Numbered from the stretch's first letter, positions 2,996 to 60,036 are shown. The stretch: 60,036 nucleotides of DNA from Acidobacteriota bacterium (GCA_018897435.1 JAHIKI010000049.1:1-60036); one strand, 5' to 3'. The notes: a model not told the origin generated them from the sequence alone. Numbers and translations are program-made.

Positions 2996-3118
2996 CCTTA
3001 GTGATGAGTGATTAGTGATAAGTGATTAGAAAAAACAATAGATCGAGCTTTTTAAAGAAATGTTTCCTCTTGCTCATTACTCATCACTTAGTGTTGGGAA
3101 GTCGTTCACTCATCACGG
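2996..3118. repeat. heptad-periodic hairpin element E1 (GTGATGA type)
   Basis: Left arm is AGTGATG AGTGATT AGTGATA AGTGATT AG (2997-3030). Right arm is CTCATTACTCATCACTTAG (3075-3093). A second right-arm copy, GTCGTTCACTCATCAC, lies at 3101-3116. Confidence 0.8.
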
Positions 3119-3173
3119 TTTGGTCGTGGACTCAGCACCAAAAACATGATAGAATTGGCCACGACCGATCAAT

Positions 3174-3246
3174 GCGCCTGTAGCTCAACGGATAGAGCGT
3201 TGGCCTCCGGAGCCAAAGGCTATGGGTTCGAATCCCGTCAGGCGCG
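3174..3246 (+). tRNA. tRNA-Arg (anticodon CCG)
   Basis: Acceptor stem GCGCCTG/CAGGCGC, D-loop AGCTCAACGGATAGAGC, anticodon loop CTCCGGA, T-arm GGGTTCGAATCCC. No CCA is encoded. Confidence 0.9.
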
Positions 3247-3265
3247 TTTTTCCGGAGGAGGGGCC

Positions 3266-3910
3266 ATGAGCTTTTTAAACCAAAAGATCAAGAACGACCT
3301 TGCTGAATCGTTCAAGAACCTGAAACAGAACGTGACATTAAAGTTTTTCACACAGGACATGGAGTGCCGTTTCTGCAAGGAGACCAGGGAACTGCTCGAG
3401 GAACTGCAGGGTGTTTCTGACAAGGTCAAAGTTGAAATTTATGATTTTGTCAAAGATGCCGCTCTGGCCAAGGAACTCGGCGTCAACCGCATCCCGGCCA
3501 TCGCTGTCACAGGTGAAAAGGACTACGGCATCCGTTTTTATGGCATCCCCTCCGGGTACGAATTCACCTCACTTGTCGAAGCCATTCGCCTGGTCGCCAA
3601 CGCCGAAGTGAAACTGTCGCCGGAAAGCAAGACCTTCCTGGACGGCTTGACGTCCGACGTTCACCTGCAGGTCTTTGTTACCCCCACCTGTCCCTACTGT
3701 CCGCCGGCCGTGATCCTGGCGCAGCAGATGGCCTTTTACAGCCCCAGGGTCAAATCCGACATGATCGAAGCGACCGAATTTCCGCAATTGGCGCAAAAAT
3801 ACAATGTCTACGGAGTGCCGCGCACCATGATCAATGAAAGTGAATTCATCGAAGGCGCGGTTCCGGAAAAGCAGCTCATCGAAAAAATCGGCTCTGTTCT
3901 GAAAAAATAG
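3266..3910 (+). CDS. protein disulfide oxidoreductase, glutaredoxin-like with two thioredoxin folds
   Basis: About 214 aa with CRFC in the N-terminal half and CPYC in the C-terminal half, as in Pyrococcus-type PDO. GGAGG lies 8 nt upstream of the ATG. The upstream part of the tracked ORF is the tRNA. Confidence 0.8.
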   Translation: MSFLNQKIKNDLAESFKNLKQNVTLKFFTQDMECRFCKETRELLEELQGVSDKVKVEIYDFVKDAALAKELGVNRIPAIAVTGEKDYGIRFYGIPSGYEFTSLVEAIRLVANAEVKLSPESKTFLDGLTSDVHLQVFVTPTCPYCPPAVILAQQMAFYSPRVKSDMIEATEFPQLAQKYNVYGVPRTMINESEFIEGAVPEKQLIEKIGSVLKK

Positions 3911-3924
3911 ACAACTCGCTGCGG

Positions 3925-5352: not shown

Positions 5353-5472
5353 TTTTCCCCCCCGTTTTTACTTTTGGCCCGATTATAGAACACCGCGAAT
5401 TAATTTTAAAGTCCAGGGCAAATGATAGGGTTTAATTGATTTTTGGAGCAAGGGAGTGTAAAATAACAAAAA

Positions 5473-33171: not shown

Positions 33172-33184
33172 GCATTCCTGGACT

Positions 33185-45930: not shown

Positions 45931-46671
45931 ATGGCTGCCGGTATCTTCCAGGCGGCGCGACTGCTGGCAGGCGCCGGCCATGTCACCGTGTTCAGCGGTG
46001 CCGGCATTTCGGTCGAAAGCGGCATTCCGCCTTTTCGAGGGGCCGGCGGCCTGTGGAGCATGGTGGATCCCGGTTTTATGGAGATCGACTATTTTCGCCG
46101 CCAGCCGGAACAATCCTGGTTGAGGATCAAGGAGATTTTTTACGATTATTTCGGCCGGGCCCTGCCCAACGATGCCCATTTCGGCGTGGCCGCCATGGAA
46201 AAAGCCGGGCTGGTCAAGGCGATCATCACCCAGAATATCGACAACCTGCACCAGCGCGCCGGCAGCCGTGAGGTTATCGAGTTCCACGGCAATTCACAAT
46301 GGCTGGTCTGCCTGGACTGCCTCGAGCGCGAGGCGGTGAGCCTCGGGCGGCTGGCTGTCCTGCCGCCGCGCTGCCCCTCCTGTGGGGGCCTGCTTAAGCC
46401 CGATTTTATTTTTTTCGGCGAGGGCATTCCGGAAAAGGCGCTGCAGCGTTCCTACCAGGAGGTTTCCCGGGCCGACGTTTTCCTGGTCATCGGCTCAAGC
46501 GGCGAGGTCATGCCGGCTTGCCAGATCCCGCCCCTGGCCAAGGCCCGCGGCGCCAAAATGATCGAGATCAACACCGTGGAGTCACATTTCACGCCTATCA
46601 GTGACATTTTCCTGAAGGGACCGGCGACGGAGACGGTTGGGGCTTTAGTCAAGGAACTTGGTATACGGTAG
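45931..46671 (+). CDS. cobB: NAD-dependent protein deacylase (Sir2 family)
   Basis: GAGISVESGIPPFRG, TQNIDNLHQRAG, zinc ribbon C..C...C..C (CLDC, CPSC) and catalytic H in EFHGN. Confidence 0.9.
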   Translation: MAAGIFQAARLLAGAGHVTVFSGAGISVESGIPPFRGAGGLWSMVDPGFMEIDYFRRQPEQSWLRIKEIFYDYFGRALPNDAHFGVAAMEKAGLVKAIITQNIDNLHQRAGSREVIEFHGNSQWLVCLDCLEREAVSLGRLAVLPPRCPSCGGLLKPDFIFFGEGIPEKALQRSYQEVSRADVFLVIGSSGEVMPACQIPPLAKARGAKMIEINTVESHFTPISDIFLKGPATETVGALVKELGIR

Positions 46672-46822
46672 ACGGTATACGGTTGACGGAAGAAAAAGAT
46701 TCAAATCCAAAGCTGCAAATCAGTGATAGTGATAGTGGTAGCGGAAATACATATTGATCGAATTTATATTTCGGATTTTTTGTTTTCCTAACACTAACAC
46801 TAACACTAACACTAACACAGTT
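46660..46822. repeat. hairpin element E9: unpaired GGTATAC-type left arm plus a hexamer-periodic inner hairpin
   Basis: GGTATAC GGTAGAC GGTATAC GGTTGAC GG spans the cobB stop codon. The inner arms are GTGATA GTGATA GTGGTA and (TAACAC)x5. Confidence 0.75.
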
Positions 46823-46869: not shown

Positions 46870-48915
46870 ATGCTAAAAAAGCTTCACAAACTCAACCTGG
46901 CCATTATCCTGTCGGCAGTAGCCGCCATTCTGGCTTACTTCTTTTTTCAGCCTGGCACTTTCCAGTTCTTCCTGTTGCTGACCATAATTCTCGCCTTTGT
47001 CCGCCTGCTGGGCATCATCCGCCGCCGCCTGCTCTGGAAGATCCGCAACCGGCTGATCATCTCTTCGCTGTTTTTCATCGTCACCCCCATCGTACTGATC
47101 ACGGTCTTTTTCTACCTGATCATCAACCTCATCATCACCCAGTACAACACGGCCATCTTCGAAAACCTGATGGTCAACGAGATCCGCTCCTTTGAAGAAA
47201 GCAGCGGCTATTACCTCGGCCTAGCCGACGATGTAAGGATCAAGCTCGAGGTGCAGCGTTTCAAAAACCGCAAGCCGCGTTTCCTGAACCTGGCTTTTTT
47301 CAAGGAGACGGACGGGCGCTACCAGGCGTTTTTTACCTATCCCGGGGACTTGCCCCTCGAGACATTCGATGCCAACGGCCCGCTGGCCAAGTTCCAAGCC
47401 GGCTATTTCAAGGTTGGCGGCGTTCTCTATCACGGCGTACATCAGCAGCGCGGCGGCTACGCGGCGCTGATTTTCGAGACCCTGAACCAGGAGTTTTTCG
47501 ACGCCATGCCGCCCATCGGCGACTTCAAGGTGCTGTTCATGGGTGCAGGCGGCAATACGCTCTCCGCCTCCTCGCAGGAGATGTCGGAGCGCCTCAACGA
47601 CAAGGATTTCGTCGGTTTCGAAAAATACCATTTCCCTTTTCCCTTCACCTTCCGCTTCTGGGATTTCGATGATCTGAAGAACGGGCAGCCCACCCTCAAG
47701 TTCAACATGTTCCTGCTGATCAACGACTATTCGAAGATCATGCAGAAACTGAAAACCTCTGACCGCGCCGCCATGCTGCAGGACCAGGCAAAGGTACTGG
47801 AAAAGGAGATCAGCCGCGGCGGCGACCAGGCTGCGCTCATGAGCAAAAGCCAGCAGTTGGACGAATTGAAAAAAGAACTTCAGGTGCTGCAAAAACGCGA
47901 CAGCCAGAGCTCGGTCTTTCCCATCTCGGTGCTGGTGCGTTTCATGCTCGGCCTGTTCGGCTTTTTCATTGTTATCTCCTTTTTCATCGGCTTGCGCATG
48001 GTGCGCGTCATCACCCGCGCCGTCAACGAGCTGACCAAGGGCACCGAAAAGATCCGCCGCGGTGATTTTTCCTACCGCATCCGCATCAAGTCGCAAGAGC
48101 AGATGCATTTCCTGGCCGAATCGTTCAATGACATGGCCTCCGGCATCGGCCGCCTGCTGAGCGAGGAAAAGGAAAAGCAGCGCTTGCAAGAGGAGCTGCG
48201 CATCGCCCGCGGTATCCAGCTGAAGCTGCTGCCCGCCGACCATTTCGCATGCCCGGAGTTTAACATCGCCGCGGTCAACATCCCGGCCACGGAGATCGCC
48301 GGCGATTATTTCGATTACTTTCACCGCCCCGGTAAATTCCTTTCGGTCCTGGTGGCCGACGTCTCGGGCAAGGGTGCCCAGGCTGCATTCTACATGGCCG
48401 AGCTGAAGGGCATCATGAACTGCCTGCAGAAGACCGGCCAGGAGCCGGCGGCCATCCTCAGCGAATGCAACGTCATCCTGCAGAGTTCTTTTGAGAAGGT
48501 CACCTTCATCACCATCAACCTGGTCCGTTTTGACCTGCAGAACAAGAACCTGATCTTTTCCCGGTCCGGCCACACGCCGGCCCTGTTTTACCAGAGCGAC
48601 AAGCAGGCCTGCCTGGAGCTGTCGCCGCACGGCATGGCCCTGGGGCTGAACAATTTCAGCCAGGAGGGCATCGAAGAGCTGCGTCTGCCATATCAAAGAG
48701 GCGATATCCTGTTCTTCTTTTCCGACGGTCTTTCCGAGATCATGAACCAGGAAGAGCAAATACTGGGCGTCGCCGAGTTGAAAAACATGCTGGTCGGCTA
48801 CGCCGCCCTTTCGGCGCTGGAGATCAAGGAGAAGATCCTGGCCCGGGCCATCGCTTTCGCCGCCGGCCAGGCCAACGCCGACGACCTGACCTTCGTGGTG
48901 ATGAAGGTTCGTTGA
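46870..48915 (+). CDS. membrane-bound PP2C-type phosphatase (HAMP + SpoIIE domains)
   Basis: N-terminal TM helices, a large extracytoplasmic region and a HAMP domain (LRMVRVITRAVNELTKGTEKIRRGD). The SpoIIE/PP2C domain has GDYFDY, DVSGKG and DGLSE. Confidence 0.85.
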   Translation: MLKKLHKLNLAIILSAVAAILAYFFFQPGTFQFFLLLTIILAFVRLLGIIRRRLLWKIRNRLIISSLFFIVTPIVLITVFFYLIINLIITQYNTAIFENLMVNEIRSFEESSGYYLGLADDVRIKLEVQRFKNRKPRFLNLAFFKETDGRYQAFFTYPGDLPLETFDANGPLAKFQAGYFKVGGVLYHGVHQQRGGYAALIFETLNQEFFDAMPPIGDFKVLFMGAGGNTLSASSQEMSERLNDKDFVGFEKYHFPFPFTFRFWDFDDLKNGQPTLKFNMFLLINDYSKIMQKLKTSDRAAMLQDQAKVLEKEISRGGDQAALMSKSQQLDELKKELQVLQKRDSQSSVFPISVLVRFMLGLFGFFIVISFFIGLRMVRVITRAVNELTKGTEKIRRGDFSYRIRIKSQEQMHFLAESFNDMASGIGRLLSEEKEKQRLQEELRIARGIQLKLLPADHFACPEFNIAAVNIPATEIAGDYFDYFHRPGKFLSVLVADVSGKGAQAAFYMAELKGIMNCLQKTGQEPAAILSECNVILQSSFEKVTFITINLVRFDLQNKNLIFSRSGHTPALFYQSDKQACLELSPHGMALGLNNFSQEGIEELRLPYQRGDILFFFSDGLSEIMNQEEQILGVAELKNMLVGYAALSALEIKEKILARAIAFAAGQANADDLTFVVMKVR

Positions 48916-49652
48916 TGGAAGAACTGGAAAAAAAACTGGGCTATCGTTTTAAGGATCGTGATCTGCTGCGCTCCGCTCTGACCCACAAATCGTTCAACGA
49001 AGGCGGCAAGAACCACGGCCTCGACAACGAGCGGCTGGAGTTCCTGGGCGATTCGGTTATCGGCCTGGTCATCACCGACTACCTGTACCGGCGCTGCCGG
49101 GACAACCGCGAGGGCGATCTGGCCAAGCTGCGCGCCCACCTGGTTTCGAGCAACCTGCTGTTCAAAGTGGCCAAGACCATCGGTTTGGGCGGCCACATCC
49201 TGCTCGGTCGCGGCGAGGAAAAGAACCAGGGCCGGCGCAATAGCAAGATCGTCTCCTCGTGCTTCGAAGGCCTGATCGGCGCCCTTTACCTGGATTCCGA
49301 CTTCGCTACCGCAACCGCGGTCATTGTCGAACGCTTCCGTGAATTCCTGGAGCAGCTGCTCAACAGCGAAATGCGCATCAACGACTACAAATCGGAGCTG
49401 CAGGAACTGATCCAGAAACACAAGAACATCCTGCCCGTTTACAAGGTGACGGCCGAGATCGGCAAGCCGCCCGACATGACGTTCCGTGTGGCCGTGTACC
49501 TGGAAAACAGCGAGATCGGCAGCGGTAGCGGCCGCAACCGCCGCGAAGCCGAGCAGGAAGCGGCATTGATCGCCCTGAAGAACATCGGCAATTTCATGAA
49601 TTTCGAAAAGCTGTCGGAAACGTTCTTCGCCGAAAAGCCCAAAGGCTCGTAG
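48912..49652 (+). CDS. rnc: ribonuclease III
   Basis: Signature NERLEFLGDSV, plus a C-terminal dsRBD (YKSELQELIQK...GSGSGRNRREAEQEAA). Confidence 0.95.
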   Translation: MMEELEKKLGYRFKDRDLLRSALTHKSFNEGGKNHGLDNERLEFLGDSVIGLVITDYLYRRCRDNREGDLAKLRAHLVSSNLLFKVAKTIGLGGHILLGRGEEKNQGRRNSKIVSSCFEGLIGALYLDSDFATATAVIVERFREFLEQLLNSEMRINDYKSELQELIQKHKNILPVYKVTAEIGKPPDMTFRVAVYLENSEIGSGSGRNRREAEQEAALIALKNIGNFMNFEKLSETFFAEKPKGS

Positions 49653-49750
49653 GAGCTCAGTGATTAGTAATTAGTGATGAGTGATTAGTTAAGAAATTAA
49701 ACGGAATTTACTGACTCTTTCTCTTTCCAGTCACTAATCATTTATTAAAG
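49653..49750. repeat. heptad-periodic hairpin element E10 (GTGATTA type)
   Basis: GAGCTC is followed by AGTGATT AGTAATT AGTGATG AGTGATT AGTTAAG AAA. The right arm TCTTTCTCTTTCCAGTCACTAATCA is short. Confidence 0.75.
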
Positions 49751-49811: not shown

Positions 49812-50033
49812 ATGGCAACGAAGAAAGTAGTAAAAAAAGTGAAAAAAGCCGTGAAGCCGGTCTTGAAAAAGAAAGTGAACCCCGTGCTCAAGAAAAAAGC
49901 CAAACCTGTGGCCAAGAAAATCGAACGCTACGCCTGCGGGGTCTGCGGCCTAGTGGTGGCGGTGGACCAGGCCTGCGGCTGCGCTCATGTCCACAGGCTG
50001 ATTTGCTGCGCTAAGGTTATGAAGAAGAAATAA
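49812..50033 (+). CDS. Lys-rich tail fused to a desulforedoxin-like Cys4 domain
   Basis: The N-terminal 37 aa are about 45 percent Lys (KKVVKKVKKAVKPVLKKK). The C-terminus YACGVCGLVVAVD...LICCAKVM parallels desulforedoxin YKCELCGQVVKV...LVCCGEDM. Confidence 0.6.
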   Translation: MATKKVVKKVKKAVKPVLKKKVNPVLKKKAKPVAKKIERYACGVCGLVVAVDQACGCAHVHRLICCAKVMKKK

Positions 50034-50038: not shown

Positions 50039-50205
50039 ATTAGTCGTGATGCGTTATGCGTAATGCGTGATGAGCATGAAAATTAACAGATCTAATCGTG
50101 ATGCGTTATGAGAAACAGCATGCTTCGATATACTCAGAAAAATTCTTTTCTTTCACATCACGTATTACGAAGTTCTGGCAGTTCGTTCACGCATCACGTA
50201 ATATG
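50039..50205. repeat. heptad-periodic hairpin element E11 (GTGATGC type, bipartite)
   Basis: Left arm is CGTGATG CGTTATG CGTAATG CGTGATG plus CGTGATGCGTTATGAGAAAC. Right arm is ATTCTTTTCTTTCACATCACGTATTACG. A linker AGTTCTGGCAGTTCGT is followed by TCACGCATCACG. Confidence 0.85.
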
Positions 50206-50566: not shown

Positions 50567-50785
50567 CGATTGTAATTAGTAATGAGTAATGAGTGATAAG
50601 TGATGAGTGATGAGTGATGAGAAACCGCTTTAAAACGAAATATCAACAAGATTCTTTTTCTTTCTCATTACTCATCACTAAAGATCGTTGATTTCGTTCA
50701 CTCATCACTATAGTTCGTAAGGTCTTCTTTCTCATCACTCATCACTGAAGATCGCTGAGTTCGTTCACTCATCACTGATCTGCGA
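50567..50785. repeat. heptad-periodic hairpin element E12 (GTGATGA type, right module duplicated)
   Basis: The left arm has 8 heptads, GTAATTA..GTGATGA GTGATGA GAAAC. The right module TTCTTTCTCAT(T)ACTCATCACT(A/G)AAGATCG(T/C)TGA(T/G)TTCGTTCACTCATCACT occurs twice in tandem. Confidence 0.85.
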
Positions 50786-51573: not shown

Positions 51574-51730
51574 ATTCGTGATGAGTAATAAGTGATAAGT
51601 GATGAGCAGCGGCCAAGGATCGATCGAATGTAGTAACTCGCCACTTATCATGAAATTTCGATAACTTCAATTCATTGTTCACGTTAGATCGTTTATTATT
51701 CTTTCTCATTACTCATCACTCATCACGTAG
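51574..51730. repeat. heptad-periodic hairpin element E13 (GTGATGA type, long loop)
   Basis: Left arm is CGTGATG AGTAATA AGTGATA AGTGATG AG. The loop is about 88 nt. Right arm is ATTCTTTCTCATTACTCATCACTCATCACG. Confidence 0.8.
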
Positions 51731-51743: not shown

Positions 51744-51772
51744 TTGAAAAATTAATTTCCTTTTGCTATAAT
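51744..51772 (+). promoter_or_regulatory. sigma70-type promoter TTGAAA-17-TATAAT
   Basis: TTGAAA at 51744-51749 and TATAAT at 51767-51772. GTG at 51783 and ATG at 51789 follow. Confidence 0.6.
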
Positions 51773-51788: not shown

Positions 51789-52919
51789 ATGAGCATAACG
51801 GTCAAAGAAGTGCTGAACAAAAAAGACCTGAAAGCATTCGTCAAGCTGCCTTTTGCCATGTACAAGGACGACCCCATGTGGGTGCCGCAACTCATCCGCG
51901 ACGACATGGAGGTCTTCAACCGCGCCAAGAATCCGGCTTTCGACAATGCCGACGCCCGGCAGTTCCTGGCATACAAGGACGGTAAGGCGGTCGGGCGCAT
52001 CGCCGCCATCTTGAGCAGTGTTGCCAACCAGAAATACAACACCAGGAACCTGCGCTTCGGCTGGTTCGATGCTCCCAACGATCCCGCAGTGGCCGCCGCC
52101 CTGTTCAGGACCGTCGAGGCTTGGGCCAAAGAGTTGGGCATGGAGACGCTCACCGGCCCGCACGGCTTCTGCGACCTCGACCCCCAGGGCATGCTGGTCG
52201 AGGGTTTCGACCAACTTCCCACCATCGCCGGCTACTACAATTTTCCCTACTACCAGAAGCTGGTCGAAGATCTTGGCTTCCAGAAGGAGGTCGATTATGT
52301 CGAATTCCGCACCCATGTGCCGGAAATGTCGGCTTTTCCCGAAAAGCTGCTGCGCCTGGCCGAGCGCATCAAGGAGCGCGGCGGCCTGCGTGTGCTGAAG
52401 TTCGCCGCCAAAAAAGAGCTCCTGGGCCGCGCCGAGGAGCTGTTCCACCTGCTGGACGAGACCTTCGAGGAAATTTACGGCGCCGTGCCCCTGACCGAAA
52501 GGCAGATCCATTATTTCATCAAAAAATATTTTTCCTTCGTGGACAAGGACCTGATCCAGGCCGTGGTCAACGAGAAGGACGAGATGGTCGGCTTCATGAT
52601 CGCCATGCCCAACTTTTCGCGCGCCTTCCAGAAAGCCAGGGGCCGCCTGCTGCCCCTGGGCTGGTGGCACCTGCTGCGGGCCATAAAGAAGAACGACGTC
52701 CTGGATTTCTACCTGGCCGGCATCAAGAAAAACTACCGCGGCCAGGGGGTGGACCTGCTGATGGTGGTGGAAATGGCCCACAAGGCCATAGCCAAGGGCT
52801 TCCGCTACACCGAGAGCAACCAGGAGCTGGAGACCAACACCAAGATCCAGGCGCAGTGGAAATATTTCAATCCGGTCCAGCACAAAAGGAAAAGGATATT
52901 TAAAAAAGTGCTTAAATAA
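51789..52919 (+). CDS. GNAT-family N-acetyltransferase (long form)
   Basis: 376 aa. The C-terminal acetyl-CoA motif region is YLAGIKKNYRGQGVDLLMVVEMAHKA. The N-terminal family region is FVKLPFAMYKDDPMWVPQL. Confidence 0.7.
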   Translation: MSITVKEVLNKKDLKAFVKLPFAMYKDDPMWVPQLIRDDMEVFNRAKNPAFDNADARQFLAYKDGKAVGRIAAILSSVANQKYNTRNLRFGWFDAPNDPAVAAALFRTVEAWAKELGMETLTGPHGFCDLDPQGMLVEGFDQLPTIAGYYNFPYYQKLVEDLGFQKEVDYVEFRTHVPEMSAFPEKLLRLAERIKERGGLRVLKFAAKKELLGRAEELFHLLDETFEEIYGAVPLTERQIHYFIKKYFSFVDKDLIQAVVNEKDEMVGFMIAMPNFSRAFQKARGRLLPLGWWHLLRAIKKNDVLDFYLAGIKKNYRGQGVDLLMVVEMAHKAIAKGFRYTESNQELETNTKIQAQWKYFNPVQHKRKRIFKKVLK

Positions 52920-53054
52920 GGGAAGAGAGAGGGAAGAATTAGGGAAGAAAAAGGGAAGAGAGAGTAAGAAAGAAGAAGTTAATTGAAATTTTATCTTATT
53001 CTTACTTTGTCTTCCCTCATTTTTCCTTCTGCATTTCCCTCCTTCTTCCCTAAG
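52917..53054. repeat. heptad-periodic hairpin element E14a (GGGAAGA type), complete hairpin upstream of a 4HB gene
   Basis: Left arm GGGAAGA GAGAGGG AAGAATT AGGGAAG AAAAAGG GAAGAGA GAGTAAG AAAGAAG starts on the GNAT stop codon. Right arm is CTTACTTTGTCTTCCCTCATTTTTCCTTCTGCATTTCCCTCCTTCTTCCCTAAGG. Confidence 0.85.
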
Positions 53055-53065: not shown

Positions 53066-53455
53066 ATGAATTGGAGAGATTTGCAAGTTTGGAAAAAGTC
53101 ACATTTATTGACCAAGCAAATTTATCAAATTACAAGGGGTTTTCCGAAAGAAGAAAGGTATGGATTGACCTCACAGATTCAAAGAGCTGCCTATTCTGTT
53201 CCACTCAATATCGTTGAAGGGCATAGCAGGAAAACTGCAAGGGAGTTTTTGCAGTATTTAAATATTGCACGTGGTTCCTTAGAAGAGTTACGGTATTTAT
53301 TGATGCTTGGATGTGAAATAGATTACATTTCGATTCCTGACAGGGAGAATTTGGAGAGTGCGGCCGCTGAGGTCTGTATCATGCTCGATGCCTTGATCAA
53401 ATCCTTGCAAAGAGGGAAAGCAAATCGAAGGAAAGTAGAGATATCGAAAAGTTAA
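53066..53455 (+). CDS. four-helix-bundle protein (23S rRNA intervening-sequence protein / Avd family), copy 1
   Basis: Family motifs L.VW, FPKEERYGLTSQIQRAAYSVPLNIVEG, EF..YL.IARGSLEEL. 129 aa. Confidence 0.9.
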   Translation: MNWRDLQVWKKSHLLTKQIYQITRGFPKEERYGLTSQIQRAAYSVPLNIVEGHSRKTAREFLQYLNIARGSLEELRYLLMLGCEIDYISIPDRENLESAAAEVCIMLDALIKSLQRGKANRRKVEISKS

Positions 53456-53463
53456 TGTATTCG

Positions 53464-53523
53464 CTTTTTCCTACTACTTCTTCCCTCATTCTTCCCTCCG
53501 GCTTTCCCTTTCTCTTCCCTTAA
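53464..53523. repeat. E14b: second GGGAAGA-type right arm downstream of 4HB copy 1
   Basis: CTTTTTCCTACTACTTCTTCCCTCATTCTTCCCTCCGGCTTTCCCTTTCTCTTCCCTTAA is about three-quarters identical by eye to the right arm at 52995-53054. Confidence 0.8.
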
Positions 53524-53537
53524 TTTATAATATTCAA

Positions 53538-53810: not shown

Positions 53811-54033
53811 AGCTTGGCAGTGGATTTCTCCCTTTTTCAGCATGATTTTTGTAAAAGGTGTGTAAAATGACGAAAATTGGCTATTGCATTGACAATCCCG
53901 GTTGGGTATGTTATTGAAATAAGTGTTTTTTGGAGGTTGCAAAGGGACTATACTCATTTTGAACACCATCTTACCTCCAACCGCTTTTTCGCCTGCCTCG
54001 CTGGAAGCCCGCAAGGGTCAGCGGCGGCAGCTT

Positions 54034-54114
54034 AGTTTGAAGAAAGTAATTAGTTAAGAAAATAAAATGCTACGAAGAAAGTGATTAGTGATTAGTGATG
54101 AGTGATTAGAAAAG
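54034..54114. repeat. E15a: AGTAATT-type arm plus GTGATTA-type left arm upstream of 4HB copy 2
   Basis: AGTTTGAAGAAAGTAATTAGTTAAGAAAA is followed by AGTGATT AGTGATT AGTGATG AGTGATT AGAAAAG (54080-54114). Confidence 0.8.
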
Positions 54115-54115
54115 A

Positions 54116-54568
54116 ATAAACCGATCAATAATGATACAAGGCCACCGAGATCTGAATGTTTGGAAAAGAAGTATGGAACTGGTTGAGGATCTCTATCAAT
54201 GTACTAAGGACTTTCCGAAAGAGGAAATTTATTCCCTGACTTCCCAAATTCGCCGTTCTGTCGTTTCGATACCCAGTAATATTGCTGAAGGAGCTGCCCG
54301 AAATTCAAAAAAGGAATTTATCCAGTTTCTCCACATTGCCCTCGGGTCCACCTCAGAACTTGAAACTCAATTGATCATCTCGGGTCGACTGGGATATCTG
54401 AAAGAAACTTCTGGGCATCTGAACAAATTGGATGAAATCAAAAAAATGCTGCTGGGCCTCTTGTCATTTGTCAAAAAGAACAAATAAAAAATTGTCATAT
54501 GCATTTTCTCTTCACTCAGCACTCTTTCTCATCACTAATCACTCATCACGCATCACTTATAACCGATC
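54116..54568 (+). mobile_element. candidate insertion cassette (4HB gene plus one right arm) bounded by the direct repeat ATAA(A)CCGATC inside a hairpin loop
   Basis: ATAAACCGATC lies at 54116-54126 and ATAACCGATC at 54559-54568. Removing the interval leaves a canonical left arm-loop-right arm element. Confidence 0.35.
54131..54487 (+). CDS. four-helix-bundle protein (23S rRNA IVS protein / Avd family), copy 2
   Basis: DLNVWKRS, FPKEEIYSLTSQIRRSVVSIPSNIAEGAAR, EFIQFLHIALGSTSELETQL. 118 aa. Confidence 0.9.
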   Translation: MIQGHRDLNVWKRSMELVEDLYQCTKDFPKEEIYSLTSQIRRSVVSIPSNIAEGAARNSKKEFIQFLHIALGSTSELETQLIISGRLGYLKETSGHLNKLDEIKKMLLGLLSFVKKNK

Positions 54569-54620
54569 GAGGACTTATGTATTTTCTCATCACTCATCAC
54601 TCATCACTTATCACTTATAA
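54504..54620. repeat. E15b: two GTGATGA-type right arms downstream of 4HB copy 2
   Basis: CTTTCTCATCACTAATCACTCATCACGCATCACTT, then the linker ATAACCGATCGAGGACTTATGT, then ATTTTCTCATCACTCATCACTCATCACTTATCACTTATAAT. Confidence 0.85.
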
Positions 54621-54632
54621 TGGAGTGCACTA

Positions 54633-56261
54633 ATGTCCAAACTAATCTCGACCTCCCCCAACGGTACCGAATACTCGCTGCCGCAACCCTCAGACTACGA
54701 CCGCGAGTTTCAGCGTGTGAAAGCGCTGGTCGACGAATCTCGTGCCAAAGGCATGGAAATCGTAATAGTCCTGGGCGTGGGTTTCGTCGGCGCCGTCATG
54801 GCCGCCATTGTTGCCGATGTAACGGACAAGAAGGGCAAACCGACGAAATTCGTCATCGGCGTGCAGCGTCCCTCTACGCGCAGCTTCTGGAAGATCCCCA
54901 CCTTGAACCGGGGCATCTCGCCGGTCAAGGCCGAGGACCCCGAGGTCGACCCGCTGATCCGCCGCACCGTGCTGGAGAAGAAGACTCTGCTGGCCACCTA
55001 CAACGACGAGGTCCTCACCCTGGCCGACGTGGTGGTGGTCGACGTCCAGCTCGATTTCCAGAAAAGCGAGCTGGGCAACTGCCGCACGGGTGAGGTAGAG
55101 ATGGCCGCCCTGGAAGAGTCGTTCGAGACCATCGCCAGACGCGTGCCGGCTGAGTGCCTGGTGCTGATCGAAACCACGGTGGCGCCCGGCACGACCGAAC
55201 AAATAGCCCTGCCCGTCATGCGCAAGATCTTCCGCCAGCGCGGCATCCAATCCGACCCGCTGCTGGCCCACTCCTACGAGCGCGTCATGCCCGGCCGTCA
55301 GTACGTGGCCTCGATCCGCGACTTCTGGCGCGTCTGCAGCGGCGTCAGCCCCGAGGCCCGCGCCCGCGTGGAAAAGTTCCTCAACGAAGTCATTCATACC
55401 GACGAATTTCCCCTGACCGTGCTCGACCGCCCCATCGAGTCTGAGACGGCCAAGATCGTGGAAAACTCCTACCGCGCCACCATCCTGGCCTTCCTGGACG
55501 AATGGTCGCTCTTTGCCGAGCGCAACGGCGTGGACATCGGCAAGGTCATCAAGGCCATCAAGGTGCGGCCGACCCACAGCAACATGATCTTCCCCGGCCC
55601 GGGCATCGGAGGTTACTGCCTGCCCAAGGACGGCGGCCTGGGCGTCTGGGCCTATAAACATGTTTTCGGCTTCGAGGACGACATTTTCAAGATCACGCCC
55701 CGGGCCATCGACATCAACGATACCCGCGCCTTGCACGCCGCCCAATTGGTGCGCGACGCCCTGCGCAACATGAGCATCCCCGTGGCCGGCGCCGAAGTCC
55801 TGGTCTGCGGCGCTTCCTATCGCGAGGACGTCGGGGACACCCGCTATTCCGGCTCAGAAGTATTGGTGCGCCGCCTTTCTGAAATAGGAGCCGAGATCCG
55901 CGTCCACGACCCCTATGTCGAGCGTTGGTGGGAGTTCGAAAAACAGGACGAGTATCCTGTGCAAGGCAAGGAGAAATTCTTCCGCAACCAAAAGAAACTC
56001 AAATCTCTGCAGGTGCAGAAGGACCTGGCCAAGGCTCTTCCCGGCTGCGACGCCCTGGTGCTCGCCGTCCGCCACGAAGAATATCTCGATTTAGTGCCCG
56101 CTGATATCGTCAAGCTCGCGGGAAAGCCTATTGCTGTTATTGATTGCTTCCTGATCTTAAGCGACGAAAAGATCAAGGAATACCTTGCCCTTGGCTGCGA
56201 GGTCAAAGGGCTGGGTAGGGGACATATAAAGAGATTGAAAGAGGAGTTGAAGAATAAATAG
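54633..56261 (+). CDS. nucleotide-sugar dehydrogenase (UDP-glucose/GDP-mannose dehydrogenase family, WbpA/WecC-like, long form)
   Basis: Rossmann GVGFVGAVMA, catalytic Cys region GGYCLPKD and a C-terminal UDP-binding domain. It is 542 aa with N- and C-terminal extensions. Confidence 0.85.
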   Translation: MSKLISTSPNGTEYSLPQPSDYDREFQRVKALVDESRAKGMEIVIVLGVGFVGAVMAAIVADVTDKKGKPTKFVIGVQRPSTRSFWKIPTLNRGISPVKAEDPEVDPLIRRTVLEKKTLLATYNDEVLTLADVVVVDVQLDFQKSELGNCRTGEVEMAALEESFETIARRVPAECLVLIETTVAPGTTEQIALPVMRKIFRQRGIQSDPLLAHSYERVMPGRQYVASIRDFWRVCSGVSPEARARVEKFLNEVIHTDEFPLTVLDRPIESETAKIVENSYRATILAFLDEWSLFAERNGVDIGKVIKAIKVRPTHSNMIFPGPGIGGYCLPKDGGLGVWAYKHVFGFEDDIFKITPRAIDINDTRALHAAQLVRDALRNMSIPVAGAEVLVCGASYREDVGDTRYSGSEVLVRRLSEIGAEIRVHDPYVERWWEFEKQDEYPVQGKEKFFRNQKKLKSLQVQKDLAKALPGCDALVLAVRHEEYLDLVPADIVKLAGKPIAVIDCFLILSDEKIKEYLALGCEVKGLGRGHIKRLKEELKNK

Positions 56262-56347
56262 CTCGATGTTCAACGTTAAAGAAAAGACAAAACCAATTGT
56301 AGGTACGTTTGGCATACGCATAGCAGTTCGATTCTTAAACTAATTTC

Positions 56348-56376
56348 TTGCATAAAATGTGGAAATGAACTATAAT
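56348..56376 (+). promoter_or_regulatory. sigma70-type promoter TTGCAT-17-TATAAT
   Basis: TTGCAT at 56348-56353 and TATAAT at 56371-56376, upstream of the ATG at 56394. Confidence 0.55.
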
Positions 56377-56393
56377 AAATCATAATTTGAAGA

Positions 56394-56663
56394 ATGCACA
56401 ATCCTGAAATAACCAAATTCATCCACGAACACAGCCAGTATTTCTGGTATACCCCGGAGACTGAAAAGGAAAACATCAGCCCGGAATTGCTGCTGGAAAC
56501 CATATTGAATGATGGCGACATGGATGCCGTTCGCGAACTTTTCAAGGTCATGGGCATAAAAAACGCGGCCAGCGTGTTTTTCAGTGCTGCCGGCAGAAAA
56601 AAAATGAATTACTATCCCGAAATTTATCATTTCTTTTCACTGCTTTTCAAACGCCATGCATAA
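56394..56663 (+). CDS. small protein, putative partner (antitoxin?) of the downstream nucleotidyltransferase
   Basis: 89 aa. It overlaps the downstream AbiEii-like gene by 8 nt and has its own consensus promoter. I recognise no family. Confidence 0.5.
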   Translation: MHNPEITKFIHEHSQYFWYTPETEKENISPELLLETILNDGDMDAVRELFKVMGIKNAASVFFSAAGRKKMNYYPEIYHFFSLLFKRHA

Positions 56664-57270
56664 GGAAATCCTCAACACCGATCAGCTTGAGCTACTGGCG
56701 CTGGTGAGGAATTTTAAGCCCGAATTTTTCCTGGTGGGCGGCACGGCCATAGCCCTTCATATCGGTCACCGCCGTTCCAATGATTTCGATCTTTTTAAAA
56801 ACGGCGAATTGCGCCACAAAAAAATACTCGATACCGTAAAAACACACGGATTTCCGGTTCAGGTCACCCGCCGGGTAAGCGAACAGTTGAACCTGACAAT
56901 TAGTGGAGTGAAATTCACGTTTTTCGATTATCCTTTTCCCATAAAACCTGTTTGCGTGTTTGAAAACGTGATCGAACTTCCCGATATTTTGACTTTGGCG
57001 GCGATGAAGGCCTATGCTTTGAGCCGGCGTTCCAAGTGGAAGGATTACGTCGATCTGTATTTTATCATCAGGCACCATCATTCAATCGCAGAGATTTCCG
57101 CCAAAGCCGGCGCTATTTTCGGCGAACTTTTCTCGGAAAAAATGTTCCGGGCCCAATTGAGCTTTTTCGAAGACATCGACTTTACCGAGCCTTTGGAATA
57201 TTTGCCGCCCGCTGTTCCGGAAACTGTAATAAGGGAGTTCCTTGTCGAAAGGGCCACGGCGGTGATTTAG
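56656..57270 (+). CDS. nucleotidyltransferase, AbiEii/AbiGii toxin family (type IV TA-like)
   Basis: 204 aa. GGTAIALHIGHRRSNDFDLF matches the family's G-G-T-A...R.S.D.D nucleotidyltransferase core. Confidence 0.7.
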   Translation: MHKEILNTDQLELLALVRNFKPEFFLVGGTAIALHIGHRRSNDFDLFKNGELRHKKILDTVKTHGFPVQVTRRVSEQLNLTISGVKFTFFDYPFPIKPVCVFENVIELPDILTLAAMKAYALSRRSKWKDYVDLYFIIRHHHSIAEISAKAGAIFGELFSEKMFRAQLSFFEDIDFTEPLEYLPPAVPETVIREFLVERATAVI

Positions 57271-57302
57271 CCGGGATGAAAAGTAATTGAGAGAAAAAGT
57301 TA

Positions 57303-57491
57303 ATGCGCAATTCAAAACTAATTGCTAAAAAAAAAGAAAGGGAGATCCTGAAGTTGAGCAGGCTGACGCCGGAGGAACGGCTGAAAGAACAGGTAAAACT
57401 TAATGTCCGCATCAAAGAACTATTCTTTGCCGGCTTGAGCAGCAAGGGATTTTCCCGGACTGAGATCATCCGCTTGTGGAAGACAAAATGA
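57303..57491 (+). CDS. small basic protein, putative partner of the downstream nucleotidyltransferase
   Basis: 62 aa. Its stop overlaps the ATG at 57488 (ATGA). Confidence 0.4.
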   Translation: MRNSKLIAKKKEREILKLSRLTPEERLKEQVKLNVRIKELFFAGLSSKGFSRTEIIRLWKTK

Positions 57492-58024
57492 ACAAAACCA
57501 ATTTAGCGAAGATACTCAAGGCCTTTCACCTACTGAAGATCCCCTTTGCCTTGGCCGGCGGCCATGCTGTCGCGGCCTGGGGAGTTGTGCGCGCCACCCG
57601 GGATATCGACTTCCTGGCCGATGCCGCAGGCGAGCTGGCGGCCAAACTGGTCCTTGAGTTGAAAAAAGCCGGTTTTAGCCTCGTTTTCCGTAAGGGTGAC
57701 GAAGCAGATCCTCTGCGGGGAGTGATCCATGTGGAAATGAAAGGTTCTGCTGACGATGAGCTTGTGGACATCGTCCTGGGCATCCGGAACATGCCTCAGG
57801 GTATTTTCGAGCGATCTCTTGCGCTTGATTTTCTAGGCCTTGAGATCCCCACCGTTGCTCCCGAAGACATGATTATTCTCAAGTGCCTGGCCGGCGGTCC
57901 AATCGACCTGGAGGATGCGCGATCAATCCTTTTCATAATGAAGAAGCGTCTGGACATGAAATACTTAGAGCGAGAGTTGAAGCGCTGCCGGATTTCGCTG
58001 CAAAAGCTGGAACAAGGAAGATGA
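57488..58024 (+). CDS. nucleotidyltransferase-fold protein (MNT/DUF6036-like)
   Basis: FALAGGHAVAAWGVVRATRDIDFL is a minimal nucleotidyltransferase motif. An alternative start lies at 57476. Confidence 0.6.
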   Translation: MNKTNLAKILKAFHLLKIPFALAGGHAVAAWGVVRATRDIDFLADAAGELAAKLVLELKKAGFSLVFRKGDEADPLRGVIHVEMKGSADDELVDIVLGIRNMPQGIFERSLALDFLGLEIPTVAPEDMIILKCLAGGPIDLEDARSILFIMKKRLDMKYLERELKRCRISLQKLEQGR

Positions 58025-58164
58025 GAAAATGAGTAAATGTGGCAATCGCAATAGAATAGAACTATTGCTGTTCTCTTTTTTCATTTACCCTTCTACCCAT
58101 CTACCCTTTTACCCATTTACTTCTTTTCTCATCAACTCATCTACCCATTTACCCATCTACAAGG
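58020..58164. repeat. heptad-periodic hairpin element E16 (GGGTAGA type, short left arm and long right arm)
   Basis: The left arm GATGAGAAAATGAGTAAATGTGG covers the stop codon. The loop contains the hairpin GCAATAGAATAGAACTATTGC. The right arm has 11 heptads, TCATTTA CCCTTCT ACCCATC TACCCTT TTACCCA ... Confidence 0.8.
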
Positions 58165-58174
58165 ATAAATTTTT

Positions 58175-59140
58175 ATGACAAAAACTGCTAAAAACTTCGC
58201 TCTCACCGGCGCTGCAGGCTATGTTGCTCCCCGCCATCTCCAGGCGATCCATGATACCGGTAACACTTTGGTCGCCGCTCTCGACCGTTCTGATTCGGTC
58301 GGCATTTTAGACCGTTTCTTTCCTAAAGCCAACTTTTTTACGGAGTTTGAGCGGTTCGACAGGCATATCGAGAAGTTGAGACGGCTGGGAGAGGGGAATC
58401 GCATCGACTATGTGTCGATTTGTGCTCCCAACTACCTTCATGACGCCCACATCCGCTTTGCCCTGCGTGTGGGAGCGGACGCGATTTGTGAAAAGCCGCT
58501 GGTGCTCAATCCCTGGAATATTGACGCATTACGGGAAATGGAGGAGGAGACGGGGCGCAGGGTGTGGACTGTTCTGCAATTGCGGCTCCATCCCGCCTTG
58601 AGAGAACTCAAGAAACAGGTTGAGCAAGCTCCTGACGGGAAAAAGCATGAAATCGACCTGACCTATATCACCTCCCGGGGGAGTTGGTATGCTGTCTCCT
58701 GGAAGGGAGATATCGAAAAATCCGGAGGGATCGCCACCAATATAGGCGTCCACTTTTTCGACATGTTGCTCTGGATATTCGGGCCATTAATCCGACTGGA
58801 GGTCCATCTGTCCACCCCGGAGAAGGCTGCCGGATTCATGGAATTGTCCAAAGCTCGGGTGCGTTGGTTTCTGTCGCTTGCTGCGGACGATCTCCCCGTC
58901 GGGTTCCTGGAGGCTAAGAAGTGCACCTATCGCAGCTTGACCGTAAATGGAAAGGAGACGGAATTCTCTGAAGGCTTCACAGACCTGCATACCGCTGTCT
59001 ATCGGGAGACATTGGGCGGCCGGGGCTTCGGCCTTGAAGATTCCCGCCCATCGATCCAGGTCGTCCACGATATCCGCCATGCAGTGCCAGTTGGTCTGAA
59101 AGGGGAGTATCATCCAATGGCGAAGATCGTGAAAGGGTAG
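58175..59140 (+). CDS. wbpB: UDP-N-acetyl-2-amino-2-deoxy-D-glucuronate oxidase (WbpB-like, Gfo/Idh/MocA family)
   Basis: Long collinear matches to P. aeruginosa WbpB as I recall it: NFALTGAAGYVAPRH, YVSICAPNYLH, DLTYITSRGSWY, TNIGVHFFDML, EFSEGFTDLHT. Confidence 0.8.
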   Translation: MTKTAKNFALTGAAGYVAPRHLQAIHDTGNTLVAALDRSDSVGILDRFFPKANFFTEFERFDRHIEKLRRLGEGNRIDYVSICAPNYLHDAHIRFALRVGADAICEKPLVLNPWNIDALREMEEETGRRVWTVLQLRLHPALRELKKQVEQAPDGKKHEIDLTYITSRGSWYAVSWKGDIEKSGGIATNIGVHFFDMLLWIFGPLIRLEVHLSTPEKAAGFMELSKARVRWFLSLAADDLPVGFLEAKKCTYRSLTVNGKETEFSEGFTDLHTAVYRETLGGRGFGLEDSRPSIQVVHDIRHAVPVGLKGEYHPMAKIVKG

Positions 59141-59305
59141 ATGGGTAGAAGGGTAGACGAGTAGACGGGAAAACGAGTAGACGAGTAGACGAGAAAACGA
59201 GAAGACGGGGAGCCGCAAAGTTCGATCTATTGAATTTTTCTCTTCTCTCATTCACTCGTACACTCGTTCACCGTTCCACCCTTCCACTCATTTACTCTAT
59301 TACCT
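59135..59305. repeat. heptad-periodic hairpin element E17 (GGGTAGA/GAGTAGA type) upstream of 4HB copy 3
   Basis: Left arm GGGTAGA TGGGTAG AAGGGTA GACGAGT AGACGGG AAAACGA GTAGACG AGTAGAC GAGAAAA CGAGAAG ACGGGGA covers the wbpB stop codon. The loop is CCGCAAAGTTCGATCTATTG. The right arm is TTCTCTTCTCTCATTCACTCGTACACTCGTTCACCGTTCCACCCTTCCACTC. Confidence 0.85.
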
Positions 59306-59309
59306 TAAA

Positions 59310-59672
59310 ATGATCGAACAAGTAAAAACCCACAAAGACCTAGACGTTTGGAAATTAGGTCTGGCATTTGTAAAAGATATCTATGTGGCTACCAAGAAAT
59401 TTCCACCTGAAGAAATGTATGGATTGACTTCGCAATTACGACGAGCAGCAGTTTCCGTCCCTACAAATATTGCCGAAGGTGCTGCAAAAAATACGAGGAA
59501 AGATTTCGTCAAATTTTTATATATCTCTTTGGGATCTCTCGCAGAGATCGAGACTTTACTATATATTTCTGAGTCGCTTAATTATTGTGAAATATCTTCA
59601 TTGATGGATTCAAGCACTCGAATTAGAATGAAGTTATTGAATTTGATTAAGTATCAAAAAAGTAAAATATGA
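59310..59672 (+). CDS. four-helix-bundle protein (23S rRNA IVS protein / Avd family), copy 3
   Basis: DLDVWKLG, FPPEEMYGLTSQLRRAAVSVPTNIAEGAAK, DFVKFLYISLGSLAEIETLL. 120 aa. Confidence 0.9.
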   Translation: MIEQVKTHKDLDVWKLGLAFVKDIYVATKKFPPEEMYGLTSQLRRAAVSVPTNIAEGAAKNTRKDFVKFLYISLGSLAEIETLLYISESLNYCEISSLMDSSTRIRMKLLNLIKYQKSKI

Positions 59673-60036
59673 AAATGAGTAAACGAGTTGACGAGTATAC
59701 GGGAAGACGAGAAAATGAGTAAACGAGTATACGAGAAGACGAGAAAATGAGTAAACGAGTATACGAGAAGACGAGAAAATGAGTAAACGAGTAGACGAGT
59801 ATACGGGTAAACGGGAAGCAGCAAAAGTTCGATCTATTGCGGTTTTCTCTTCCCTCGTCCACCCTTCCACTCGTACACCCGTTTACAAGCAAGCGTTTTC
59901 TCTTCCCTCGTCCACCCTTCCACTCGTACACCCGTTTACAAGCAAGCGGTTTCTCTTCCCTCGTCCACCCTTCCACTCGTACACCCGTTTACAAGCAAGC
60001 GGTTTCTCTTCCCTCGTCCACCCTTCCACTCGTACA
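59671..60036. repeat. hairpin element E18 with tandemly amplified arms, truncated by the window end
   Basis: The left side has about 4 tandem units of GAAAATGAGTAAACGAGTATACGAGAAGACGA (32-nt period in the middle copies). The loop CAGCAAAAGTTCGATCTATTGCGG is near-identical to the E17 loop. The right side repeats a 53-bp unit TTCTCTTCCCTCGTCCACCCTTCCACTCGTACACCCGTTTACAAGCAAGCG(G)T starting at 59845, 59898, 59951 and 60004. Confidence 0.85.

Follow-up and report, generated by a model that had tools for sequence, protein, structure and literature searches.

Intergenic hairpins of inverted heptamer arrays and their association with PF05635 four-helix-bundle genes

Hairpins and genes of the window

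The stretch analysed here, 60,036 nucleotides of DNA from an Acidobacteriota bacterium (GCA_018897435.1, JAHIKI010000049.1:1-60036; below, the window), carries about 19 long imperfect hairpins (E1-E19) with arms of 7- or 8-base repeats, and inside or directly beside these hairpins lie three open reading frames (ORFs) of the PF05635/TIGR02436 family, at 53066-53455, 54131-54487 and 59310-59672. The association of PF05635 genes with inverted arrays is general across phyla. A preliminary description of the window had recognised one dispersed family of hairpins with a shared architecture and had linked no gene to it; we found arm-matched inverted repeats at the places it named, and the three genes, together with the cross-phylum association, show that such a gene exists.

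By running Tandem Repeats Finder (TRF), we detected short tandem arrays in the intergenic gaps named in that description, and an inverted-repeat search paired these arrays as arms of 19-63 nt with 71-100% complementarity, the stems overall being only about 85% complementary. Seventeen loci were folded on both strands and compared with 60 dinucleotide-preserving shuffles per locus. The proposed hairpins were borne out, with z of -3 or below on at least one strand in 15 of the 17 loci (range about -3 to -8), compared with -2.9 to +2.4 in nine control intergenic gaps of the same window. The strongest values came from E18 (-7.3/-8.1) and E14 (-6.5/-6.1); in a second run E14 gave z = -7.1 as RNA and E18 z = -4.5 as single-stranded DNA, and in neither case did any of 200 shuffles fold equally well; stable stems are predicted in either form. 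Not every locus listed is a hairpin: E4 is a lone right arm, and both E4 and E10, which has a weak right arm, fold no better than dinucleotide shuffles. The hairpin family is real. Arm coordinates, which combine the repeat search, TRF, folding and reading of the sequence, are precise within a few bases.

The three ORFs match their family models with hidden Markov model scores of 116-136 bits (cut-off 33.8) and 112-132 bits (cut-off 24), above the cut-offs over the full domain of about 105 residues. [quoted passage not shown] The gene at 54131-54487 (plus strand, 118 aa; E = 6e-40) lies in the loop of E16, whose AGTGATT-class left arm (54047-54113) ends 17 nt upstream of the start codon and pairs with right arms at 54505-54624 (modules 54505-54563 and 54578-54624), 425-468 nt away, with up to 95% complementarity (91% over 35 nt across 468 nt); its minimum-free-energy (MFE) fold has 71 long-range pairs spanning the gene. 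At 53066-53455 (plus strand, 129 aa; E = 1.4e-36) the gene is directly preceded by a complete GGGAAGA-class hairpin, E14 (52914-53052), and followed by a second right arm of that class, E15 (53467-53525), which also pairs with the E14 left arm across the gene (54 spanning pairs). Two hairpins thus span 350-470 nt and each enclose a gene, so that loops are not all 20-90 nt long as had been described. The third gene (59310-59672, plus strand, 120 aa; E = 1.1e-33) is flanked by two complete period-8 hairpins, E18 upstream (59128-59298; GGGTAGAC/GAGTAGAC class) and E19 (59673-60036; z = -4.3, minus strand), whose 146-nt left arm runs from the gene's stop codon on.

GC content at third codon positions is 0.43, 0.40 and 0.31 in these three genes (in the order just given), compared with 0.6-0.8 in their host neighbours. 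We obtained syntenic relatives of the window, denoted like the other compared loci by L numbers below, in a metagenome scan with a host protein; the ratio of nonsynonymous to synonymous substitution between the 54131 gene and its orthologue in the relative L085 is 0.06, close to the 0.08 of the RNase III gene rnc. The four-helix-bundle genes are therefore foreign in composition yet under purifying selection. Upstream of E16, at 53890-54035, a promoter-like TTGACA...TATTGAAAT is followed by a leader of about 140 nt ending in GGCGGCAGCTTAG. Conservation in L084, L085 and L097 covers at least the 3' part of this leader, possibly a small ORF or a regulatory RNA, which the four-helix-bundle cassette separates from the ribosome-binding site of the dehydrogenase gene.

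The remaining elements begin with E1 (2996-3118; left arm 2996-3032, right arm 3066-3091, second right arm 3105-3118; z = -4.2, minus strand), a GTGATGA-class hairpin directly upstream of a tRNA-Arg gene. No array lies between 3.2 and 25.9 kb, in agreement with the preliminary description. E2 (26018-26211; arms 26018-26080 and 26121-26183; z = -4.7/-6.0) is an element of about 190 nt of the CCAAATT type, trailed by a lone GTGACGC-class right arm at 26174-26211. The AAAGGCA-class hairpin E3 (27601-27915; arms 27601-27636 and 27851-27886; z = -4.7/-4.2) has a 214-nt loop with two GC-rich mini-palindromes, and then an extra right arm. Such small GC-rich palindromes (for example CCCCCTTTATTAAGGGGGG, GGGGTTTGATTAATCAAACCCC and TAGGGAACGCAGATCTGCGTTCCCTA) occur inside hairpin loops at 27680-27800 of the window and in three relatives (L084 2990-3010 and 6130-6180; L085 6560-6620; L088 5110-5240), and look like a second family of tiny nested inserts. 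E4 (28762-28803; TCATCAC class; z = +1.1/+0.3) stands between two minus-strand genes. Directly 3' of frr, E5 (33181-33519; z = -5.4/-5.9) is a triple nest, with an outer GGTTTAC-class, a middle CCAAATT-type and an inner period-8 GTTGAAGG layer, that folds as a single nested MFE structure.

E6 (39613-39753; z = -4.6) is a hairpin of the GTTGAAGG class with period 8, whose arms (39613-39656 and 39672-39715) precede a TCGAACA array, and E7 (40044-40161; z = -2.2/-3.0) an AGTGATT-class hairpin. E8 (42685-42806; z = -4.4) combines a GTGATGA-class hairpin, a linker and a second right arm; it is 96% identical to E12 over 52 nt and has loop and linker sequence in common with it. The stop codon of an upstream UvrA-like ORF is the TGA of the first heptad of E8 (42680-42690), and in L084 (6040-6130) the same ORF runs about 25 codons into a different element, so that elements rewrite the C-termini of host proteins. 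The GGTATAC-class left array of E9 (46656-46818; z = -4.0, minus strand) is partnerless and irregular, with an inner hexamer hairpin of AGTGAT x3.3 against a perfect CTAACA x5.2. The gene rnc (48912-49652, plus strand; Pfam Ribonuclease_3 and dsrm) is followed, 3 nt past its stop codon, by the AGTGATT-class array E10 (49655-49745; z about 0).

E11 (50040-50203; CGTGATG class; z = -2.5/-2.4) has two left-arm and two right-arm segments. Between E10 and E11, at 49812-50033, is encoded a 73-aa lysine-rich protein with two CxxC pairs (zinc-ribbon-like), which in L084 lacks most of its lysine-rich N-terminal part. In E12 (50567-50785; GTGATGA class; z = -4.2) a left arm of about eight units precedes four right-arm modules, and the GTGATGA-class hairpin E13 (51574-51730; z = -5.2, minus strand) has a strong promoter-like site 3' of it at 51744-51772 (11 of 12 matches). 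E17 (58017-58161; z = -3.6) is a period-8 hairpin of the GATGAGTA/GGGTAGAT class with two right-arm modules. Four small genes at 56394-58024, between those for a UDP-glucose dehydrogenase and a GFO_IDH_MocA oxidoreductase, include two AbiEii/DUF6036-type nucleotidyltransferase genes and resemble toxin-antitoxin pairs; the block is apparently absent from L085, in which nothing of 56253-58183 aligns.

The main repeat units are nGTGAnn, GGTAGAC, GRGTAGAC, GGGAAGA and AAAGGCA. The family had been called heptad-periodic, which holds for the period-7 arrays; the period is 8 at five loci (E6, E17, E18, E19 and the innermost hairpin of E5), 11/22 in E14 and 6 in the inner hairpin of E9. Reading of the sequence confirmed that AAGAAAA or GAGAAAC closes the left arms and that TTCTTTCTC-like runs begin the right arms; the pyrimidine motif occurs 21 times in the window against 10.5 expected, 17 of the 21 on the plus strand. 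Additional right-arm copies, also anticipated, were seen at E1, E8, E11, E12, E16, E17 and E19, and the element lengths sum to about 3.25 kb, near the estimate of roughly 3.4 kb. We rejected GAGCTCG as a signature of the elements: it had been placed at the edges of at least four copies, but only three exact copies lie at element edges, and the window holds six against 8.6 expected. Outer edges more often bear a loose ACTCGG...CCGAGT pair, an unquantified trend, which in places includes the GGAG Shine-Dalgarno sequence of the next gene. TTGGTCA, noted in E2 and E5, is indeed present there as single copies, all inside the CCAAATT-type element, and never in tandem.

No transposase or integrase was found among about 35 of the roughly 60 window genes (25.6-60 kb; genes of 0-25.5 kb unscanned), and neither TRF nor the inverted-repeat search revealed a CRISPR (clustered regularly interspaced short palindromic repeat) repeat-spacer structure in the window, both as previously stated. 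At the gathering threshold, Rfam models matched two tRNAs in the window and nothing else, no rRNA included; a permissive scan of 49.6-60 kb yielded nothing above threshold, its matches being to eukaryotic miRNA precursors and snoRNAs, that is, to generic hairpins. PADLOC defence models gave no match.

Chimeric joins or collapsed repeats in a metagenome-assembled genome (MAG) could in principle mimic such structures. Indeed, both the window and the matching NCBI contig end inside a tandem right-arm array of E19 (a 53-nt module in at least 3.7 copies of 97% identity, 59839-60036), so repeats do break assemblies here; tandem right-arm modules likewise lie 3' of the four-helix-bundle gene in L092 (4271-4480). 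Against an artefact, four independent assemblies from NCBI, Logan and ENA, one of them MAG GCA_018897215.1, contain the window sequence at 99.9-100% identity, and the same architecture recurs in syntenic relatives and in finished cyanobacterial plasmids; we regard this explanation as so improbable that it can be set aside. The NCBI contig, JAHILI010000095.1, begins 2,850 nt into the window, which thus derives from a longer assembly of the same strain.

Association of arrays and genes across phyla

To sample the family beyond the window, we collected 79 loci encoding relatives of the window proteins, one genome per species; being the nearest relatives of a single query (47-71% identity), they do not represent a random draw from a family of 22,949 clusters at 50% identity (E <= 0.001). 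The loci come from Nitrospirota, Bacteroidota, Desulfobacterota, Acidobacteriota and Aminicenantales, Fibrobacterota, Omnitrophota, Chloroflexota, Planctomycetota, Campylobacterota and two archaeal lineages. Counting a gene as bracketed when the top inverted repeat between its 250-nt upstream and 250-nt downstream flanks scored at least 30, we found that 54% of 83 PF05635 genes were bracketed compared with 1.2% of 410 control positions in the same loci, a 45-fold difference (Mann-Whitney p = 6e-26). Examples of such arms are (CGTGAAT)n/(ATTCACG)n, (GGTGAAG)n/(CTTCACC)n and (CAGTAAG)n/(CTTACTG)n.

Period 7 predominates among arrays detected in 900 kb (290 arrays; period 8 accounts for 56, period 6 for 22 and each remaining period between 5 and 12 for 14 or fewer), with a unit consensus of G-T-[G/A]-A-n-n-n. 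Array density per 100 kb was 40 near PF05635 genes and 23-57 in the window and its relatives, compared with 1.5 in 194 kb of unrelated loci lacking a PF05635 gene, 25-fold lower. One of these control loci, L109, does contain a heptad hairpin (AGCGGTC/GCTGACC; 3435-3544) with no four-helix-bundle gene within 15 kb, and gene-less copies thus occur far from PF05635 genes too. The G-rich arm was on the 5' side in 21 complementary array pairs and on the 3' side in three; because this polarity is invariant under reverse complementation, it is a trait of the hairpin and not of gene orientation.

Arms measure 32 nt at the median, with 24 nt between arm and start codon and 28 nt between stop codon and arm, and the distance to the start codon appears to leave no space for a promoter of the gene's own, so that both arms would lie within a read-through transcript. 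PF05635 genes were mostly oriented like their neighbours (73:8 upstream, 76:6 downstream), and GC content was below that of the flanks in 80 of 89 cases. Two further ideas failed. Protein clades do not appear to co-evolve with repeat period, the period-8 loci being unclustered by protein identity (p = 0.89; four loci). Stop trinucleotides (TGA, TAA or TAG) are present in 72% of repeat units against 49% expected, but GGGAATC-type units and some window classes carry no stop, which makes stop enrichment at most a side effect and not, through stops in three frames, the reason for periods 7 and 8.

Finished plasmids and Xanthomonas provide independent replicates. In an annotated plasmid collection the PF05635 family is concentrated in the Nostocales (Nostoc, 22 records; Calothrix, four), the group in which the heptamers called short tandemly repeated repetitive (STRR) sequences were first described. 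Among six plasmid genes inspected, five, from Nostoc, Calothrix and Anabaena, are bracketed by inverted heptamer arrays, with units GGGAGTA, AGGTGAC, GGGTGTA (twice) and TCAGAAT, which makes the STRR analogy offered in the preliminary description a fair one. These cassettes lie between nrdB and nrdA, between cas6 and cas4, or 3' of an integrase gene; on the Anabaena sp. 90 (L112) and Nostoc edaphicum (L111) plasmids, taken together, there are cassettes between cas6 and cas4 of a type I-D CRISPR-Cas operon and another between nrdB and nrdA on the opposite strand, so that co-orientation with neighbours is common and not obligatory. PF05635 genes had been noted earlier inside cas operons (PMC3936711) and in rRNA insertions of Candidate Phyla Radiation bacteria. 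In Xanthomonas campestris, 186 GGGAATC-type arrays have been catalogued, among which 70 pair up in convergent inverted orientation (Rehm et al. 2015, PMC4692102), and in the supplementary table of that study array #15 abuts XCC0516, the PF05635 protein crystallised as 2GSC.

Turnover, nesting and a cassette interpretation

Identity of coding blocks to the window is 92-96% in L084, 86-96% in L095 and L097, and 70-87% in L085-L094, and alignments with these relatives break exactly at the hairpin slots. In L084, E7 is 100% identical and E17 is conserved; the slots of E6, E8 and E10-E16 are of other classes (about 8 of 11 slots differ in this way), and the two four-helix-bundle alleles show only 40-56% identity. 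The slot after the rnc stop codon has a different occupant in each of seven genomes: an AGTGATT hairpin in the window, a CGTAATT/GAATCAC-class hairpin with two right-arm modules in L084, a lone GTGACGC array in L097, a nested composite in L088, an AAAGGNA hairpin in L085, CGTGATT arrays in L093 and, in L092, a gene-bearing GGCAGAC cassette with four right-arm modules. Four-helix-bundle proteins are 37-56% identical at slots whose host genes are 87-96% identical (L084, L097); L085 has kept orthologues at 70-78%, and L093 carries a homologue of the 53066 gene at another slot and on the other strand. Cassettes and gene alleles are thus exchanged at fixed intergenic slots between very close relatives.

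The CCAAATT-type element forms a discrete family of about 190 nt, with eight homologous copies in three genomes and in both orientations, among which mismatches between the arms are conserved. Five or six of these copies lie exactly at the apex of a hairpin of another class, between ...GAAGAAWA and TTTTCTT..., so copies of at least one subfamily have entered the apexes of hairpins unrelated to it, producing nesting of the kind seen at three levels in E5. Swapping and nesting are together the behaviour of copy-and-paste DNA that prefers hairpin apexes.

These observations bear on the simplest account of such arrays, in which simple-sequence repeats grow in place by polymerase slippage, arms form by local inverted duplication or template switching, the gene is coincidental and the arrays have neither mobility nor function. 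An excess of heptamers in bacterial intergenic DNA is known (cited in PMC4692102), unit variants occur within arrays and right-arm modules are tandemly duplicated, all of which fit slippage. Slippage cannot account for the replacement of whole elements between near-identical genomes, and it fits poorly with homologous copies of about 190 nt at non-orthologous sites, with the loop and linker common to E8 and E12, and with the 45-fold association with PF05635 genes and the 25-fold lower density in unrelated loci. We consider it very improbable.

The explanation we favour, and hold to be moderately probable, is that the loci are gene-bearing and gene-less forms of one selfish, intervening-sequence-like hairpin cassette. 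A full cassette would consist of a short conserved base, a 5' arm of tandem nGTGAnn-type units of 7 nt, in some cases 8 nt, an A-rich/T-rich apex and a complementary 3' arm, with a loop that is either short or occupied by a single PF05635 gene of about 120 aa, the anatomy of ORF-bearing 23S intervening sequences. It would be transcribed by read-through from host genes, usually co-oriented. In the intervening sequence of Coxiella, the S23p ORF lies in the loop of a 28-bp stem that is cut by RNase III (PMC4990558), and by analogy the RNA stem of the cassette may be cut in the same way, which would free a small mRNA and make insertion between genes or in rRNA helices tolerable. The product of rnc is a candidate host factor for this step; that rnc abuts E10 we treat as coincidence.

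The conserved four-base core at a fixed 7-nt spacing and a strongly conserved polar motif in the protein (LTSQ.RR...S.P.NIAEG) suggest that the pentamer binds arrays of the repeated GTGA-type units. Gene-less copies may have arisen by loss of the gene, for instance through recombination between duplicated right arms, as the order left arm-right arm-gene-right arm at E14/E15 and in L084 would allow, and would persist as 3'-end hairpins. Several hairpins are directly followed by promoter-like sites, such as that 3' of E13, and of 11 terminator-like U-tract structures in the window (12.4 expected) none coincides with a main stem, which together place many gene-less copies at transcript 3' ends.

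Several results weigh against this interpretation. None of the 79 loci lies within an rRNA gene and no fetched locus contains 23S signature motifs, so that the link to true intervening sequences rests on gene family and architecture. At the junctions of the eight CCAAATT-type copies no target-site duplication was recognised, and no recombinase or transposase linked to the cassettes was found among window genes of about 25.6-60 kb or in the relatives' flanks; mobility is accordingly read from distribution, not from mechanism. Hairpins upstream of promoter-like sites or between divergent genes may lie outside read-through transcripts. The GTGA core is not universal, cyanobacterial and Xanthomonas units being GGGTGTA, GGGAGTA and GGGAATC. 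In 48 gene-bearing hairpins (L005-L083 and the window) mismatches are mostly transversions (163), with 50 G.U pairs on the sense strand compared with 94 A.C (p = 3e-4). Selection on the sense-strand RNA would be expected to give an excess of G.U; the opposite was found, and there is no sign of selection for sense-strand RNA pairing. Finally, every orthologous slot in close relatives is occupied by some hairpin, which could equally fit a host need for a hairpin there.

Such a need is the core of the main alternative, in which the hairpins are host-serving RNA structures at 3' ends or between operons, acting for example as processing sites, as blocks to exonucleases or as non-canonical terminators, and comparable to repetitive extragenic palindromic (REP) sequences and bacterial interspersed mosaic elements (BIMEs) or to Correia elements. 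The heptads would then bind a trans-acting regulator, possibly the four-helix-bundle proteins themselves, in a post-transcriptional network and not as selfish DNA. Besides full slot occupancy, this account draws on the position of hairpins directly after stop codons and just before promoter-like sites, on canonical U-tract terminators not being over-represented, and on unpaired extra right-arm modules that are C-rich and G-poor and may resemble Rho loading sites; a regulator-binding role has also been proposed for TAACTGA heptamer arrays (MacGregor 2015, PMC4679880). Against it, the gene pair that ends in rnc recurs in a more distant relative (44-62% protein identity) whose 17.5 kb contain no array, which shows the structures to be dispensable. 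Class swapping at 92-96% coding identity and nesting are mobile-DNA behaviour, the four-helix-bundle genes are foreign in composition, and the wobble signature of RNA-level selection is missing. We rate a host-serving role as rather unlikely.

Beyond the cassette interpretation we put forward, tentatively and as doubtful in its full extent, a broader proposal: PF05635 pentamers may be sequence-specific binders of nGTGAnn which, with inverted arrays, make up a very widespread, hitherto unrecognised minimal mobile cassette that spreads into hairpin apexes without a conventional transposase. If this were true, one type of cassette would explain the ORF-bearing intervening sequences of rRNA, the PF05635 genes in cas, nrd and polysaccharide operons, and the excess of intergenic heptamers in STRR sequences, Xanthomonas and Nostoc. 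PF05635 is a very large family with two crystal structures, for which the flanking arrays offer a candidate nucleic-acid partner. Turnover of the cassettes is also much faster than that of the genes around them, and they disrupt assemblies; hence they matter for strain typing, MAG contiguity and annotation, the last because ORFs upstream stop within the first repeat units or continue into them.

Comparison with known systems

Integron attC cassettes do not account for the elements, with no integrase among the genes checked and with housekeeping genes lying between the hairpins. The four-helix-bundle proteins have a homologous fold to Avd, the pentameric four-helix-bundle protein of diversity-generating retroelements that binds nucleic acid and a reverse transcriptase. 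They differ in scoring far better to TIGR02436 than to the Avd model: matches to bAvd (PF22296) and NF033474 lie below the cut-offs of these models, and with the Avd model two of the three score 29-44 bits against a cut-off of 80, the third having no match. Neither a reverse transcriptase nor a template/variable repeat pair was found among the window genes checked (about 25.6-60 kb).

Miniature transposable elements with inverted repeats (MITEs), Correia elements and REP sequences are, like the elements of the window, short, gene-less, dispersed and imperfect inverted repeats at gene ends. Correia/NEMIS (Neisseria miniature insertion sequence) transcripts are cut by RNase III, and enterobacterial REP hairpins serve as targets for other insertions. 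The likeness to MITEs extends to non-coding homologous copies that bear terminal inverted repeats and occupy non-orthologous sites (the eight CCAAATT-type copies; E8 and E12), but the window elements have no known parent element and no recognised target-site duplication. They differ from all such miniature elements in that the arms are internally periodic, the class varies from locus to locus and the sole linked gene encodes a 120-aa helical-bundle protein. Whereas REP sequences are palindromes of 20-40 nt with a 5' GTAG, the arms here are tandem arrays of 20-146 nt without a REP head, and no Y1 transposase-like RAYT (REP-associated tyrosine transposase) domain was found among the scanned window genes.

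A closer likeness is to heptamer arrays, among them the cyanobacterial STRR repeats reportedly described by Mazel et al. in 1990. STRR, Xanthomonas and TAACTGA arrays are also tandem 7-nt units in intergenic DNA, with 2-40 units per array, and those of Xanthomonas (70-75 arrays), like those of the window, form convergent inverted pairs within one intergenic region; the Xanthomonas pairs could fold into stem-loops. The units differ: the window has no tandem CCCCAGT, TTGGTCA, CAACAGT, GGGAATC or TAACTGA, and the G-quadruplex-prone GGGANTN of Xanthomonas is not among its main unit types. The cyanobacterial highly iterated palindrome HIP1 (GCGATCGC) occurs 0 times in the window against 2.1 expected, a count uninformative on its own about a cyanobacterial host. 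Papers on heptamer arrays do not connect them to PF05635 genes, nesting or turnover, and the supplement of the TAACTGA study (PMC4679880) does not mention S23 or IVS proteins.

The organisation of the elements had been thought undescribed. Inverted heptamer pairs (PMC4692102) and an ORF in a stem-loop (PMC4990558) are each known; the link between arrays and PF05635 was not found in any paper among the full texts searched, subscription journals lying outside their coverage, and thus seems undescribed, though it may have been reported before.

The nearest counterparts overall are the ORF-bearing 23S rRNA intervening sequences, which reportedly go back to Ralph and McClelland in 1993. Not being in rRNA, the window elements are not intervening sequences in the strict sense: they lie between protein-coding genes instead of in helix 25 or 45, their arms are tandem 7- or 8-nt arrays of up to 146 nt, and the family has many gene-less copies, nesting and tandem extra right arms. 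Excision by RNase III is known for intervening sequences; its counterpart in the window is an rnc gene and stems of more than 22 bp. What the two have in common is a PF05635 ('S23p') cargo, an overall size of about 450-600 nt, an ORF in a loop closed by a stem of terminal inverted repeats (found here for the 54131 and 53066 genes), a GC content lower than that of the host, and a sporadic distribution suggesting horizontal transfer. The ORF-bearing intervening sequences of Coxiella and Leptospira have already been suspected of being mobile or selfish (PMC4990558). Set side by side with both systems, the hairpins join two old puzzles, the role of the conserved ORF in rRNA intervening sequences, a question dating from 1993, and the excess of heptamers, recognised in STRR sequences since 1990.

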